This document shows positions 3,413 through 47,761 of a stretch of DNA of 64,000 bases, in pieces. The DNA comes from a virus (taxonomy: Duplodnaviria; Heunggongvirae; Uroviricota; Caudoviricetes), in IMG/VR virus record IMGVR_UViG_3300020451_002055. One strand, given 5' to 3'. The position numbers were made by a program, and so were the translations under genes. How positions within the stretch are numbered: the stretch's first letter is position 1; each line of letters opens with the position of its first letter. The notes under the pieces are model-generated. The model had not been told where the DNA came from. It searched no databases and saw only the letters and a list, made by a program, of their open reading frames with translations.

Positions 3413-3956
3413 GGCCAAGAAGCTTGCATTCGCGGCCCATGCCGATCAGTTTAGAGACGACGGCCAAGCCTATATCATTCACCCCTCAAGCGTTGTCGAT
3501 CGAATCGAGGCCGCAGGATGCAGCGATGAAAGAGTCATCTGCGCTGCATGGCTGCATGATGTTGTCGAAGACACAGAATGGACAAGCGGTCATATTGAAA
3601 TGCTCTTCGGCGAAGAGATCGCCGAAATTGTTGACCAGTTGACGCTTCCGGTTCCAGATCGATGGCCGCACAACTTCCATCAAGGGCGGGAGTTGAAGAC
3701 GCTAGCTCTGATGGGCAAGGCAACAATCATGTCTCCCGCCGCTAAGGTTATCAAGATCGCAGATCGCATCGATAACCTGAGTTCTGCCAAGGGAACTTGG
3801 AAGGCATCAAGGCTTGCTGCGTATGCAGTCCAAGCAGACCGTTTCTTGCAAGCCATGGAACTGACAACAACTCCCGAGATGGAGTTTTATAGAGCATACC
3901 AGGAACTTCTGACCCAAGTCAGAGACATCATCAGCAGCATCCAACAAGGACAATAA
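3336..3956 (+). CDS. HD-domain (p)ppGpp hydrolase-like protein (small alarmone hydrolase/Mesh1 type)
   Basis: AH..QFR...YIIHP, AAWLHDVVEDT, IKIADRIDNL motifs of RelA/SpoT hydrolase domain. Confidence 0.85.
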   Translation: MATMVNGTLTDQAWLKEMEAMSPRDRAKKLAFAAHADQFRDDGQAYIIHPSSVVDRIEAAGCSDERVICAAWLHDVVEDTEWTSGHIEMLFGEEIAEIVDQLTLPVPDRWPHNFHQGRELKTLALMGKATIMSPAAKVIKIADRIDNLSSAKGTWKASRLAAYAVQADRFLQAMELTTTPEMEFYRAYQELLTQVRDIISSIQQGQ

Positions 3957-19530: not shown

Positions 19531-20126
19531 TGATCTTTGACAAGTTCACTGACCGCGCTCGTCATGTCATGGCTATCGCAAACCAAGAGGCTCAACGGTT
19601 CAATCACGAGTACATCGGGACCGAACACATCCTCCTTGGCGTTTGCCGGGAAGGATCAGGCGTTGGAGCCCATGTTCTCAAGAGCAGAGGCATTCAATAT
19701 CAACGTCTTCGGGTTGAAATCGAGAAGATCATTACCAAAGGGCCTGAAGAGAATCGACAGCTAGGCCATATCGGCCAGACTCCGAGGGCAAAGAAGGTCA
19801 TTGAGTTTGCCGTCAAGAATGCCAGAGAACTCGGGCACGATTATGTCGGGACTGAGCATATTCTGCTCGGTCTGATCGACGAGAAGGACGGCGTTGCCGG
19901 TCAGATCATCTTGAACATGGGATTGACCCATGAAACCGCTAGAGCAGACATCATGAATCTGTTGGCTCAAGATGACCCGAGAGATTCAGACGAAGAGAAG
20001 ATCAACAAGGATATTGAATCCTATCAAGACGTTCTCAGGGATGCAGTTGTTCTCTCGCGGGAAAAAGACATCGACATCACAGCCGCCTTTGCTCAGGTTA
20101 TGGCAGTAAGGAGAGGACATGGCTGA
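19530..20126 (+). CDS. stand-alone Clp repeat (ClpC N-terminal) domain protein
   Basis: FDKFTDRARHVM..ANQEAQRFNHEYIGTEHILLG repeated as GHDYVGTEHILLG; no ATPase domain. Confidence 0.9.
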   Translation: MIFDKFTDRARHVMAIANQEAQRFNHEYIGTEHILLGVCREGSGVGAHVLKSRGIQYQRLRVEIEKIITKGPEENRQLGHIGQTPRAKKVIEFAVKNARELGHDYVGTEHILLGLIDEKDGVAGQIILNMGLTHETARADIMNLLAQDDPRDSDEEKINKDIESYQDVLRDAVVLSREKDIDITAAFAQVMAVRRGHG

Positions 20127-20663: not shown

Positions 20664-21182
20664 ATGCCAAAGACCTGCGAGAAATGTGGATCGAATTTTC
20701 CGTTTCAAATGGAGATTGATGGTCGGATACGGAATTTTGGCAATCGAAGGTACTGCCTAGATTGTTCCCCTTTTGGCAGCCGCAATACCCGAACCTTAGA
20801 AAACAGCGAACAAAATGGTCTTTGCAAAGAATGCGGTCGGGTATTCGATTACGACAGATCAAAAGGACATAAAAGACGAACATGCAACTCTTGCTGCGTC
20901 ATCAAAGCTCAGAGGAATAAGAAGCAAAAAGCAGTCAACTACCTTGGAGGCAAATGCAGTAAGTGCGGATACAGTAAATGCTTAGCTGCTCTTGAATTCC
21001 ATCATATCGAGGACAAAGAAGAGAGTCCTTCATATGTCATTCTGAGATGGTCTTGGGAAAGGGCAAAGAAAGAGCTAGACAAGTGCGTTCTGTTATGTTC
21101 CAACTGCCATAGAGAAGAACATGAAAGAATGCTAAAGGAAAATCGGGTCCAAAGCTTATCAGGTAAAGCACCTGACTCTTAA
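20664..21182 (+). CDS. HNH endonuclease
   Basis: CxxC pairs, LGGKCSKCGY, ALEFHH, LDKCVLLCSNCHREEH. Confidence 0.88.
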   Translation: MPKTCEKCGSNFPFQMEIDGRIRNFGNRRYCLDCSPFGSRNTRTLENSEQNGLCKECGRVFDYDRSKGHKRRTCNSCCVIKAQRNKKQKAVNYLGGKCSKCGYSKCLAALEFHHIEDKEESPSYVILRWSWERAKKELDKCVLLCSNCHREEHERMLKENRVQSLSGKAPDS

Positions 21183-21218
21183 TCAGGATTCTTGCGGGTT
21201 CGAATCCCGCTGGACCCA
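21145..21218 (+). tRNA. tRNA-Lys(CTT)
   Basis: Acceptor GGGTCCA/TGGACCC, anticodon arm CCTGA-CTCTTAA-TCAGG, T arm GGTTCGAATCC; A at position 8 atypical. Confidence 0.85.
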
Positions 21219-23091: not shown

Positions 23092-23415
23092 ATGAACGTA
23101 CCCAACTTCTGTAAGCCGATCTACTGGCCTCTTGTTGGCGGCATTGCTCGCAACTTCTACGAGAGTCCTGCGGAGAACGGATGCTTCGCCCTCGTGCTTC
23201 TGGTCTTTTCGGTGCTTTGGTGGATATCCGCATCTACCATTACAGGCAGTATGATCTTGGGGTTGTTTTGGACTGCCCCTATTCTTCTCTGGTCTTTGGG
23301 TCATTTCGTTGCATGCATCGTTATGATAGCTCGCATCGAAATTGAGAAAGCCCGAAGAGAGGCGGAGAGAAGAGAAGCCGCCGCCCGAAAAGCAGTTCAA
23401 AGGAGCGCACTGTGA
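23092..23415 (+). CDS. small membrane protein
   Basis: Two hydrophobic segments; coupled start/stop. Confidence 0.6.
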   Translation: MNVPNFCKPIYWPLVGGIARNFYESPAENGCFALVLLVFSVLWWISASTITGSMILGLFWTAPILLWSLGHFVACIVMIARIEIEKARREAERREAAARKAVQRSAL

Positions 23416-23783
23416 GACGCAAAGGTTTTTCTCTTATCGAACTCCTCGTTGTTATGGCGATCATCGCACTGCTCATCGCTATCATTGTTCCTGCTATTGG
23501 CAAAGCAAGACAGCATCAACTCGAACAGGACCGCATCAACTCGCCCGACTACGTTCCTCCTCGCTTCGACGAGCAAGAGCGGGCCATTCTCGATCTCGTT
23601 GACAACATTGTCTATGTCCGCGATCCGAAAAGCGGCCTGGTCTACGCTATCATCAGAGAGACTAATCAGGAAGATGACTATAATGAAGGCTATGGTTGGG
23701 GCTACGGCTACATGGCAATTGTCCCGCCGGACCAGATTGAGAGAATCGAGCATCTGATCATTAATCGCGGCATTGATGATTGA
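23412..23783 (+). CDS. prepilin-type N-terminal cleavage/methylation domain protein
   Basis: MRRKG/FSLIELLVVMAIIALLIAIIVPAIGKAR type IV pilin N-terminus. Confidence 0.9.
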   Translation: MRRKGFSLIELLVVMAIIALLIAIIVPAIGKARQHQLEQDRINSPDYVPPRFDEQERAILDLVDNIVYVRDPKSGLVYAIIRETNQEDDYNEGYGWGYGYMAIVPPDQIERIEHLIINRGIDD

Positions 23784-24158: not shown

Positions 24159-24794
24159 ATGAAAGATTATCCCTCTATCCAGGGGCCTACTCAGGCCCCT
24201 CGGAAGCCATGTATCGCGTTCCATAAATACGACGGTTCCAACCTGCGTTTCGAATGGTCTCCGAAACGAGGATGGCATAAGTTTGGTACCAGAAAGCGTC
24301 TGTTCGATGAGACAGACGAGATTTTTGGACCGGCTATCCCGATCTTCCATCAAACGCTCGCAGACGGCATTATCGATGTCATCAAGAGTAACAAGAGATG
24401 GAGGAACAATGATCGGGTTACTGTCTTTGCCGAGTTTGTTGGCCCCAAATCATTCGCGGGCCTCCATGACCTCGAACCTGACAATCCAATGGAGCTTGTT
24501 CTCTTCGATGTCTGGCTCTACAAGTATGGGCTGATCGGTCCCCGAGAGTTCTCGAAAGAGTTCAGCGATCTCCGCATTCCTGAAATCGTATACGATGGAA
24601 ACCTGAACGAAGAGTTCGTTGCAGGTGTTCGTCGCGGCGACTACAATCTTGGAGACGGCATCGAAGAAGGCGTTGTCTGTAAGGGCGGCAGCGGAGGACA
24701 TCGAGACCTGTGGATGGCGAAAGTCAAGACTCAGGCATACCTCGACAAGCTCAAGGAAGTCTTTGGGACCGGCTGGACCCAATACGCCGAATAG
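24159..24794 (+). CDS. ATP-dependent RNA ligase-like nucleotidyltransferase
   Basis: Motif I KYDGSN, FAEF, LFDV, EGVV, AKVK. Confidence 0.75.
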   Translation: MKDYPSIQGPTQAPRKPCIAFHKYDGSNLRFEWSPKRGWHKFGTRKRLFDETDEIFGPAIPIFHQTLADGIIDVIKSNKRWRNNDRVTVFAEFVGPKSFAGLHDLEPDNPMELVLFDVWLYKYGLIGPREFSKEFSDLRIPEIVYDGNLNEEFVAGVRRGDYNLGDGIEEGVVCKGGSGGHRDLWMAKVKTQAYLDKLKEVFGTGWTQYAE

Positions 24795-26073: not shown

Positions 26074-26382
26074 ATGAGCCGCGAGAAGCGACGAGCCCGA
26101 CAGGAGTTCCGTCAAGGCGTTTTGGATCGCGACGGCCATCGGTGCGTCATCTGCGGCGTTCAGCCGGGGGATGATGGACTCGACGCTCACCACATCATCG
26201 ACAGGCACGACATGCCCAACGGCGGATACGTCAAGGAGAACGGCGTGACGCTATGCCATGACTGCCATCCGCTTGCGGAACGGGAGCATCAAGGGCTTGA
26301 TCCAGTGCCGGGTCTGAGTCGAGCAGAGCTTTTCGCGGCCATTGGGTCGAGCGAGGAAGAGGCCAGACATGCCGACCGCTGA
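26074..26382 (+). CDS. small HNH endonuclease
   Basis: RDGHRCVIC...DAHHI...NGVTLCHDCH. Confidence 0.85.
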   Translation: MSREKRRARQEFRQGVLDRDGHRCVICGVQPGDDGLDAHHIIDRHDMPNGGYVKENGVTLCHDCHPLAEREHQGLDPVPGLSRAELFAAIGSSEEEARHADR

Positions 26383-32623: not shown

Positions 32624-32663
32624 TTTGTAGGTGAAAGCTGTTTTGGGTATCTTGGCAAAGCAA

Positions 32664-33120
32664 ATGAAGACTTGTTCAAAATGCAAAGAAAGCAAACTTG
32701 AAGAATGCTTTGCTAAAAAGACCAAAGGTAAATTGCAGCCTTGGTGTAAGAACTGTAACAGGTCGTATCAAAAGAGCCATTACAAAGCAAATAAGCAGAA
32801 GAGAGTTTCTCAGGTAAATGAGTACAAGAAAGATCGAAGACTACAACTCAGGCAAAGACTTTATCAGTTCTTGCTTGAAAACCCATGCGTAGACTGCGGA
32901 GAAAATGATCCTGTCGTTCTTGAGTTTGACCATGTTCGAGGACAAAAAAACAAGCGACATAAGCTCCATGATCGGCCAATGCTCTTCATGGGACAGGATA
33001 CAAGATGAAATAGCGAAATGCGAAGTACGATGCGCCAATTGCCATCGAAAACAAACAGCAATACGTCAAGGCTGGAAAGTGCAATGGCAGCAAGCAGGAG
33101 AAGATTTCAATGTCAGATAG
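32664..33120 (+). pseudogene. HNH endonuclease frameshifted at A7 run (32944-32950)
   Basis: Frame 1 ends ...CVDCGENDPVVLEFDHVRGQK; next frame continues KTSDISSM...EIAKCEVRCANCHR. Confidence 0.8.
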
Positions 33121-38327: not shown

Positions 38328-38350
38328 CCGCCCAACGTAGGGCGGTTTTT
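38328..38350 (+). terminator. intrinsic terminator
   Basis: CCGCCC/GGGCGG hairpin + TTTTT. Confidence 0.65.
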
Positions 38351-38377
38351 GTTCCGGTAGCTCAACTGGATAGAGCA
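38351..38377 (+). pseudogene. 5' half of an interrupted tRNA-Arg
   Basis: GTTCCGG-TA-GCTC AACTGGATA GAGC-A; acceptor strand pairs with CCGGAGC at 38910-38916. Confidence 0.75.
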
Positions 38378-38385
38378 GGAGCAGT

Positions 38386-38459
38386 AGGGCGGTAGCTTAA
38401 TTGGATAAAGCAACGGTCTTCTAAACCGTCGAGTGCGGGTTCGAGTCCCGCCCGCCCTG
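38386..38459 (+). tRNA. tRNA-Arg(TCT)
   Basis: AGGGCGG/CCGCCCT, ACGGT-CTTCTAA-ACCGT, GGTTCGAGTCC. Confidence 0.92.
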
Positions 38460-38519
38460 TTCAGTAGATTAGAAGGAGTTATTCTAATCTGTCCGTATTC
38501 ATAGTCAGGAGGTCTGACT

Positions 38520-38882
38520 ATGGATACCAAGCATTGCCCGAAGTGTGATACCGAAAAGAGTCTCGAAGAGTTCTACAAGAAAGGAGCAGATCGCTACCAG
38601 CCTTATTGCAAGTCTTGTTTCAACCAATATTGCCAAGATCGATGGAGAAGGCGAAAGGTTGAAGCAATCAAAGCAAAGGGAGGCAGGTGTAGTAAATGCG
38701 GATACGATAAAAACTACGCTGCTCTTGAGTTCCATCACCGAGACGATGAAGATAAAGAGATGGATTGGAGCAAGGCGAGATTAGCTTCGGAAAAGAGGAT
38801 GCTTGCGGAGCTTGACAAATGCGACTTGGTTTGTCGTAACTGTCATGCAGAACTTCATAACCCTCAAGGTATGAACTTCTAA
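38520..38882 (+). CDS. HNH endonuclease
   Basis: CPKC..CKSC, KGGRCSKCGY, ALEFHH, LDKCDLVCRNCHAELH; AGGAGG SD. Confidence 0.9.
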   Translation: MDTKHCPKCDTEKSLEEFYKKGADRYQPYCKSCFNQYCQDRWRRRKVEAIKAKGGRCSKCGYDKNYAALEFHHRDDEDKEMDWSKARLASEKRMLAELDKCDLVCRNCHAELHNPQGMNF

Positions 38883-38917
38883 ACCGTAGGTTGTGGGTTC
38901 GAGTCCCACCCGGAGCG
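38876..38917 (+). pseudogene. 3' half of interrupted tRNA-Arg(TCT)
   Basis: CTTCTAA-ACCGT-AGGTT-GTGGG TTCGAGT CCCAC-CCGGAGC-G. Confidence 0.8.
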
Positions 38918-38976
38918 TTAGGTGGCATGTACTCTACAGCGGAGACTTAGGTTCGTGGGCAAGATCGGAGCCAACA

Positions 38977-47630: not shown

Positions 47631-47761
47631 CGTGCAGTAGCTCAACAGGTAGAGCGGCAGTCAAAAAGGTCCATGACCGATTTGCTTGCTCGTTTCGAGT
47701 TGAAGGTTGATGGTTATCTATCGCAAAACTGCTTGTGGAGGTTCGAGTCCTTCCTGCACGA
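47631..47761 (+). ncRNA. tRNA-shaped RNA with Y-like stem in anticodon loop (C)
   Basis: Acceptor CGTGCAG/CTGCACG, anticodon stem GCAGT/ACTGC; insert CTT-GCTCG TTT CGAGT-TGA...GGTTATC. Confidence 0.8.

Follow-up and report, generated by a model that had tools for sequence, protein, structure and literature searches.

A candidate intron-less homing cassette that splits a phage tRNA-Arg(UCU) gene and carries a complete replacement tRNA

The 64,000-nucleotide (nt) stretch of a Caudoviricetes genome analyzed here (IMG/VR record IMGVR_UViG_3300020451_002055; referred to as the window) contains a canonical tRNA-Arg(UCU) gene whose two ends lie on either side of a 498-nt insert (38378–38875), which is composed of a leader, a full variant tRNA-Arg(UCU), two hairpins, and the gene of an HNH endonuclease. 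With a probability of roughly 0.68, we read this insert as a homing cassette without an intron, which enters canonical tRNA-Arg(UCU) genes at the stem/loop boundary between nt 31 and 32 and brings along a nuclease-resistant replacement tRNA. The observations behind this reading are the anatomy of the locus, its recurrence in other phages, the youth of the cassette as compared to its surroundings, the stages of its decay and loss in relatives, and the scarcity of the canonical D arm in intact tRNA-Arg genes that neighbor the nuclease. In general, a homing endonuclease gene that enters a highly conserved gene must leave its host viable, and the known solutions to this problem are a self-splicing intron or intein, an insertion site beside the target gene, or, rarely, a split protein whose pieces assemble. 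The locus and its relatives point to another solution, in which the target is broken and a complete nuclease-resistant replacement is carried by the invading element itself.

Sequence inspection identified the two outer pieces as both ends of one canonical tRNA-Arg(UCU) gene (Table 1). The 5′ fragment comprises the 5′ strand of the acceptor stem, U8 and A9, a complete canonical D arm, and A26, and the 3′ fragment continues with the anticodon loop CTTCTAA, the 3′ strand of the anticodon stem, the variable loop, the T arm, the 3′ strand of the acceptor stem, and the discriminator G. The outer acceptor strands (GTTCCGG/CCGGAGC) pair at 7/7 positions, one of them as a G·U pair, for which the probability by chance is about 0.001. 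Both the D and the T arm of the old tRNA are intact, and all that it lacks is the 5′ strand of the anticodon stem (5 nt). The inner, cassette-borne tRNA has an acceptor stem that differs from that of the old halves and a non-canonical D arm (GCTT AATTGGATA AAGC); canonical arms are characterized by GCTC with GGATAGAGC, whereas the cassette version is characterized by GCTT with GGATAAAGC. The sequence CTTCTAAACCGT is present twice, at 38418 in the inner tRNA and at 38876 in the old 3′ half. An initial annotation, made by a model from the sequence alone, had already described split tRNA-Arg halves with complementary acceptor strands, a complete and divergent tRNA-Arg(TCT) between them, an HNH open reading frame (ORF) that ends with a TAA in the old anticodon loop, and the sharing of CTTCTAAACCGT by both tRNA copies. 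These features were all recovered at the same positions, the inner tRNA by both Rfam and ARAGORN, and the TAA (38880–38882) corresponds to T36A37A38 of the old loop, in which the final two codons of the ORF are located as well.

Table 1. Features of the split tRNA-Arg(UCU) locus (positions within the window; aa, amino acids).
Feature	Position	Strand	Remarks
Terminator-like hairpin and T run	38328..38350	+	CCGCCC-AACGTA-GGGCGG, then TTTTT; intrinsic type, of the upstream 141-aa gene
Old tRNA, 5′ fragment	38351..38377	+	GTTCCGG TA GCTC AACTGGATA GAGC A; tRNA positions 1-26
Leader, 8 nt	38378..38385	+	GGAGCAGT; left edge of the cassette, between old 5′ fragment and new tRNA
Inner cassette-borne tRNA-Arg(UCU)	38386..38459	+	Rfam RF00005, 72.6 bits (gathering score 29); ARAGORN tRNA-Arg(tct)
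Hairpin 3′ of the new tRNA	38466..38490	+	arms AGATTAGAA / TTCTAATCT; conserved
AGATTAG microrepeats	38466-38472 and 38778..38784	+	first copy in the 5′ arm of the preceding hairpin; endpoints of the 312-nt deletion in L001
Hairpin around the HNH start	38495..38527	+	encloses Shine-Dalgarno GGAGG and ATG (minimum free energy fold); equivalents in L005 and L008
Free-standing HNH (His-Me finger) endonuclease gene, 120 aa	38520..38882	+	phrog_2255 'HNH endonuclease', E 1e-33
Old tRNA, 3′ fragment	38876..38917	+	CTTCTAA ACCGT AGGTT GTGGG TTCGAGT CCCAC CCGGAGC G; tRNA positions 32-73

The locus is a real part of a giant marine phage genome. It is base-for-base the same in 5 independent metagenome assemblies (mostly from Tara Oceans) that span it fully, which rules out an assembly artefact, and of two short contigs that cover it partly, one is identical and the other has a single-base difference. 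The HNH protein is furthermore carried by contigs of up to 487 kilobases (kb), and in the 16 contigs with an identical copy its context never changes, so that there is no population-level variant among them. For comparison with other phages, loci were collected via HNH homologues and via flanking proteins, and these are given below with L numbers. At the position of the terminator-like hairpin, which abuts the 5′ end of the old tRNA, L003 and L001 likewise have a hairpin, and the end of the leader (..GCAGT/..CAGGT) is common to L003 and L005.

The HNH gene is free-standing and intron-less. It has its own Shine-Dalgarno sequence and ATG, and an Rfam search at E-values up to 1 across positions 20000–50000 found no intron family and no ribozyme at the locus. 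The hairpin that surrounds its start probably restrains translation of the nuclease. The G+C content of the gene is 44.6 % as compared to 50.6 % for the window, and the HNH genes of the window lie at 42–45 %. Pfam matches to the ORF are all sub-threshold; the protein has an N-terminal CxxC...CxxC zinc module followed by the motif series CxxC / FHH / N / CxxCH...H, of which FHH72-73, N107, CxxCH105-109, and H113 vary little or not at all among 22 homologues, and a profile matches the HNH motif of McrA. An AlphaFold model (predicted local distance difference test score of 90.9) has nearly exclusively HNH proteins as nearest structural neighbors, namely Cap5, Gme HNH, T4 endonuclease VII, the Cas9 HNH domain, and McrA. 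The alignments to these neighbors by VIA-align are weak (Z 3.3–4.3, root-mean-square deviation 3.4–4.1 over 61–64 residues) and a Foldseek search of the PDB gave nothing below E 0.05, with the best HNH match at E 0.2, so that the fold evidence is to be taken as suggestive.

The same order of old 5′ half, full tRNA-Arg(UCU), hairpins, HNH gene, and old 3′ half recurs in five other divergent phage contigs. Loci of this layout include the syntenic L005/L006 (HNH identity 73 %, old halves GTCCCCA / CGGGGAT), L007 in a different neighborhood (58 %, GGGACCG / CGGTCCC), L008 (51 %, ATCCCTG / CAGGGAT), and L010/L011 (55 %, GTCCCAG / CTGGGAC). The acceptor sequences of the outer halves differ from locus to locus, with pairing at 6/7 positions in L005 and at 7/7 in each of L007, L008, and L010, and the T stems vary in a compensatory fashion (for example, GTGGG/CCCAC versus GAAGG/CCTTC). 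The halves of the window are 69–71 % identical to their counterparts in L005, likewise with compensatory changes. Since the halves match each other and differ from the inner tRNA, they belong to one resident gene; tandem duplication alone was rejected for the window on the same ground.

The position of the insertion is best seen in L005, where the outer tRNA is complete. Its left piece ends with ...GAGC G TCAGA and its right piece starts with CTTCTAA TCTGA, with TCAGA pairing to TCTGA, so that the exact point of insertion is between nt 31 and 32. In all loci the insertion point lies before loop position 32, and in L005 it is clean. The 5′ strand of the anticodon stem is absent in the window, L007, L010, and L013, and such shorter left pieces are best read as the result of later erosion. 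Fragments of the 5′ type are located at the same place in L001, L003, L005, L007, L008, L009, L010, and L013, and those of the 3′ type directly follow the HNH stop codon in L001, L005, L007, L008, L010, L012, and L038; L009 and L013 have the 5′ half as their only piece, and L012 and L038 the 3′ half. The HNH-proximal portion of the 3′ half (GCGGCAGGT) is common to L007, L010, and L012, and their T stems and acceptor strands differ, a pattern that resembles what a co-conversion gradient may be expected to leave.

Comparisons of the cassette to its genomic surroundings gave marked contrasts in identity. Between the window and L003, the inner tRNA is identical at 74/74 positions, whereas the orthologues of four tRNA-Glu genes and of tRNA-Arg(CCU) reach 72–89 %. 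Between the window and L005, 14/24 four-fold sites of the HNH gene are identical (58 %) versus 47/159 in four flanking genes (Fisher p 0.009), whose identity at such sites (27–33 % per gene) amounts to saturation. In the same pair, the inner tRNA (95 %) and the non-coding spacer (83 %) are far more similar than the intergenic DNA of the backbone (33–39 %), and the old halves, at the values given above, behave similarly to backbone tRNAs. Additionally, the identity of the HNH protein and that of the inner tRNA co-vary across eight loci. From these contrasts, the HNH gene travels together with the spacer and the inner tRNA as a single unit, and the outer halves are part of the resident genome. 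Judged by these identities and by the low G+C content of its HNH gene, the cassette is younger than its surroundings and behaves like an element that spreads horizontally.

The youth of the cassette also bears on a different explanation, which we consider unlikely, namely a one-off nuclease-induced rearrangement within a cluster of similar tRNA-Arg genes, by microhomology or unequal recombination much as in the segmental amplification driven by the phage T4 nuclease SegB, which left partial tRNA copies on either side of a tRNA-plus-HNH unit and was then vertically inherited. Breaks made by SegB are known to lead to recombination at microhomologies of tRNA and nuclease genes, from which repeats arise (PMC13096335), and microhomology deletions occur at the present locus as well. 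Moreover, the 5′ fragment of L013 is a 26/27 copy of the 5′ half of the neighboring full tRNA, and the acceptor strand of the 3′ fragment of L012 is almost the same as that of its full tRNA. However, the fragments of the window, L005, L007, L008, and L010 match each other and not the inner tRNA, the insertion point is constant throughout, with the clean case in L005, and the clear youth of the cassette relative to its flanks, seen in two comparisons, is not what vertical inheritance of one rearrangement would predict.

Different stages of the cassette are represented among the relatives of the window. The window, L004, and L005 carry the HNH gene, L001/L002 have it with an internal deletion, and L003 lacks it. 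In L001/L002, whose flanking proteins are 85–92 % identical to those of the window, both halves and the inner tRNA (73/74) are kept, 312 nt of the HNH gene are gone between the AGATTAG repeats, which inactivates the gene, and the 3′ anticodon-stem strand of the old tRNA has changed from ACCGT to ATTCGC. In L003, with flanks that are 54–62 % identical to those of the window, the 5′ fragment (GCGCCCGTAGCTCAGGATAGAGCG), a leader ending in GCAGT, and the inner tRNA are found without the HNH gene and without the 3′ half, and the inner tRNA is directly followed by the backbone sequence that comes after the 3′ half in the window (..GGTGGCAT..). Taken together, the relatives display gain, decay, and loss of the cassette.

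Beyond these loci, the HNH family as a whole keeps company with tRNA genes. Among 61 non-redundant IMG/VR loci with a family member, 42/61 have a tRNA at ≤200 nt and in 20/61 the stop codon lies inside a tRNA. The commonest partner is tRNA-Arg(UCU), which is located either 40–130 nt upstream on the same strand or in convergent orientation with the ORF running into the tRNA. In a T5-like phage, a family member overlaps tRNA-Ile, and in Pseudomonas phage PAK_P4 (L147, 1087–1646) a tRNA-Arg(UCU) with a non-canonical D arm precedes an HNH gene whose ORF overlaps tRNA-Lys by 39 nt and stops in the anticodon loop of that tRNA. Judged by its genomic associations, the HNH family is a tRNA-gene specialist. 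The cultured PAK_P4 pair represents a possible laboratory model for the family.

The D arm of these partner tRNAs carries a further signal, which was assessed in viral tRNA-Arg(UCU) genes picked by their loop and T-arm pattern alone. A canonical D arm (GCTC..GGATAGAGC) was found in 51/107 genes without a nearby HNH family member and, in samples of related sequences, in 2/30 intact HNH-adjacent genes (2/23 after collapsing related loci, p 4e-4) and in 6/8 broken 5′ halves. With two other search patterns, 0/87 intact canonical tRNA-Arg(TCT) genes had a family member within 1.5 kb. This correlative distribution fits a scenario in which the canonical gene would be the target of the enzyme and the cassette tRNA an escape variant. 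The proposal of the initial annotation, a homing element that would destroy its tRNA target and supply a cleavage-resistant isoacceptor as an alternative to intron splicing, gains backing from the avoidance of the canonical D arm, along with the origin of the halves from one resident gene, the youth of the cassette, and the series of decay and loss.

The mechanism we propose starts from mixed infections, in which the HNH enzyme would cut or nick canonical tRNA-Arg(UCU) genes near the anticodon arm in cassette-free phage genomes, with the canonical D arm GGATAGAGC probably being part of the recognition site. The break would then be repaired from the cassette-bearing genome, for which the two old tRNA halves could serve as homology arms. 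In this process the cassette would be copied in and the old gene destroyed, and AGA decoding would be kept by the cassette tRNA, whose altered D arm may allow it to escape the enzyme. The halves would afterwards persist as relics; in the window, the left junction is already 5 nt short, so that the old tRNA cannot be rebuilt. The cleavage site, the resistance of the new tRNA, and the repair-mediated copying are the steps that we infer from the patterns described above.

Several points weigh against homing in this form. The initial annotation had suggested a search for relatives with the uninterrupted allele, and no close relative turned up with such an empty allele. L150 comes nearest, with an uninterrupted canonical tRNA-Arg that lies 20 nt upstream of the gene orthologous to the downstream one (43 % identity), but it is distant and its anticodon is CCT, not TCT. 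As for the D-arm signal, the intact HNH-adjacent tRNAs of L013 and L069 carry the canonical arm. The statistics are built on small counts of related, non-independent sequences. Furthermore, CTTCTAAACCGT, which covers the loop and the 3′ stem strand, is the same in the old and the new tRNA, which leaves the D arm, the missing 5′ strand, and the variable loop as features by which the enzyme would have to tell them apart. The halves also keep perfect T stems and acceptor pairing in lineages whose cassettes are down to 58 % four-fold identity; this calls for either selection acting on the halves or homing that has recurred in recent times. Lastly, the first entry of the tRNA-plus-HNH unit into the target gene is left unexplained by the proposed mechanism.

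With regard to the preserved stems, the homing reading would accommodate them by repeated and fairly recent invasions of already diverged functional genes. Had there been just one insertion long ago, several pairs should be lost from halves with the divergence of the HNH four-fold sites.

A blastn search of GenBank phages returned generic tRNA similarity only, and neither the upstream protein nor the HNH protein gave a match when scanned singly against the IMG/VR collection, in which the window's own lineage is not contained. Scans of metagenome and viral contigs with an alignment of the downstream protein yielded only homologues at roughly 40 % identity or below, none of them with the tRNA locus, and an exact scan for the old 3′ half hit unrelated tRNAs with the same T arm and acceptor. 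In-silico excision was discarded as evidence, since ARAGORN, which was used for scoring, accepted arbitrary junctions in large number. A full tRNA with the old-tRNA backbone of the window (GTTCCGG...CCGGAGC) was observed in IMG/VR contig 3300040801_006072 (L135, reverse strand, approximately 3640–3735). It shares the acceptor, D arm, and T arm with the old tRNA and has the loop CTCTAAA, which is one base shorter than CTTCTAA and contains the anticodon CUA, reminiscent of an amber suppressor.

That the halves are still in use as RNA is a reading that we regard as distinctly unlikely. Here, the old acceptor strand, D arm, and T arm would come together in the transcript from both sides of the 498-nt insert, as a tRNA-like 'top half' acting as a processing handle for RNase P/RNase Z or as a stabilizer for the inner tRNA and the HNH mRNA, and in loci whose old tRNA is complete the pieces might be rejoined. 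This is supported by the acceptor and T stems that remain paired through compensatory changes in five divergent loci, by a minimum free energy fold of 38345–38925 in which the old acceptor stem closes the whole domain, and by two features elsewhere in the window, namely an Rfam tRNA match at 47631–47761 (49 bits, 131 nt), which forms a cloverleaf with an insert of about 57 nt in the anticodon arm, and an RNA ligase ORF at 24159–24794 (211 aa, KxDG motif, Pfam RNA_ligase E 8e-7, just above the cut-off). The latter is located directly after a tRNA-Lys(UUU) gene. However, either half is dispensable, as L003, L009, and L013 are without the 3′ half and L012 and L038 without the 5′ half, the four loci named above (including the window) have lost the 5′ strand of the anticodon stem, the old 3′ anticodon-stem strand is scrambled in L001, and neither an intron nor a ribozyme was detected in the locus by Rfam at E-values up to 1. 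Independent invasions of functional tRNA genes that had diverged beforehand explain the covariation equally well. A more specific version, which seems to us quite improbable, has the halves clamp the 0.5-kb transcript of the cassette as a 'top half', which would be excised and matured by host RNase P, RNase Z, or CCA enzymes; a complete old tRNA of the L005 type might then be rejoined by the phage RNA ligase. If true, such a clamp would constitute a protein-dependent, ribozyme-free 'intron' that holds a tRNA and an mRNA.

A group I-type self-splicing or archaeal-type tRNA intron that contains the nuclease ORF is scarcely credible and is excluded for the window, for although the position in the anticodon loop is typical of bacterial tRNA group I and archaeal introns and the insert contains an endonuclease ORF, Rfam gave no intron family at E-values up to 1, the non-coding part of the insert (the tRNA and about 60 nt) is too short for a group I core, the absence of the 5′ anticodon-stem strand leaves no exon junction that could restore the tRNA, and in L001 the HNH gene is deleted with the halves still apart. 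A split tRNA of the Nanoarchaeum type was rejected, as the 5′ half ends at A26 without a complementary leader or trailer and some relatives have just one of the two halves.

Among known systems, those nearest to the locus are free-standing endonucleases encoded in phage tRNA clusters, namely T4 SegB and the F-Tfl enzymes of T5, which have in common with it that an intron-less nuclease gene is placed among the tRNA genes of a phage. In SegB-free relatives, SegB cleaves tRNA genes and thereby drives the inheritance of its own tRNA region, including isoacceptor differences, with co-conversion, and HNH genes also sit in the tRNA cluster of T5 (PMC2330249). SegB homologues are furthermore statistically linked to tRNAs (PMC13096335). 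In these systems the genes occupy the spaces between tRNA genes, whereas here a tRNA gene itself holds the nuclease gene and a complete tRNA, and its halves flank them like exons. SegB, moreover, has a different nuclease fold and recognizes the T loop, whereas the D arm and the anticodon arm would be implicated in the present case.

A second point of comparison is offered by endonuclease genes within protein-coding genes. The mobE gene reportedly interrupts nrdA of Aeromonas phage Aeh1, an arrangement that Friedrich et al. are said to have termed 'genes in pieces' in 2007. 'Fractured genes' with split inteins represent a related arrangement (PMC2677866). Both resemble our locus in that a free-standing endonuclease gene lies in the coding body of a conserved gene with a piece on each side. 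There, however, function is retained via assembly of the protein pieces or trans-splicing inteins, whereas here the broken gene would be abandoned and a second complete copy supplied. With group I introns that encode homing endonucleases, the cassette has in common a conserved site in the anticodon-loop region, the immunity of the split site, and a gene product that is still available, but it has no ribozyme and would compensate by gene replacement at the DNA level and not by RNA splicing. Phages and islands that integrate at tRNA genes carry a replacement 3′ end in their attachment site attP. Such elements likewise enter a tRNA gene and bring sequence that keeps the tRNA functional; they depend, however, on tyrosine or serine integrases and supply the 3′ part only, whereas the HNH nuclease is the sole enzyme here and a whole divergent tRNA is provided. 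In the library of full texts searched, no description was found of a homing cassette with a replacement tRNA inside a split tRNA gene.

If confirmed, the homing reading would explain why this widespread HNH family travels with an odd-looking tRNA-Arg(UCU), and it would account for divergent duplicates and tRNA fragments in the tRNA arrays of giant phages. It would also show how selfish nucleases can drive the turnover of phage tRNA genes and provide a natural pair of cleavable and resistant tRNA genes for studying target recognition by HNH enzymes.

Further HNH genes are present in the window. A paralogue at 20664–21182 (172 aa, phrog_2255 E 1e-36) is without a stop codon of its own; it reads 38 nt into an intact tRNA-Lys(CUU) at 21145–21218 and stops at T36A37A38, and no scars of tRNA halves were seen upstream of it. 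The third HNH gene (32631–33100), of a different type (LEFDHV...CANCH), lies between two tRNA-Glu(UUC) genes and is frameshifted at an A run near 32945. Its orthologue in L001 is intact and L003 is without the gene, which makes for another series of presence, decay, and absence. The fourth (26074–26382, Pfam HNH E 2e-6) is located away from any tRNA. Apart from these, an ORF at 23412–23783 encodes a protein with a type IV pilin-like N-terminus (MRRKGFSLIELLVVMAIIALL...).

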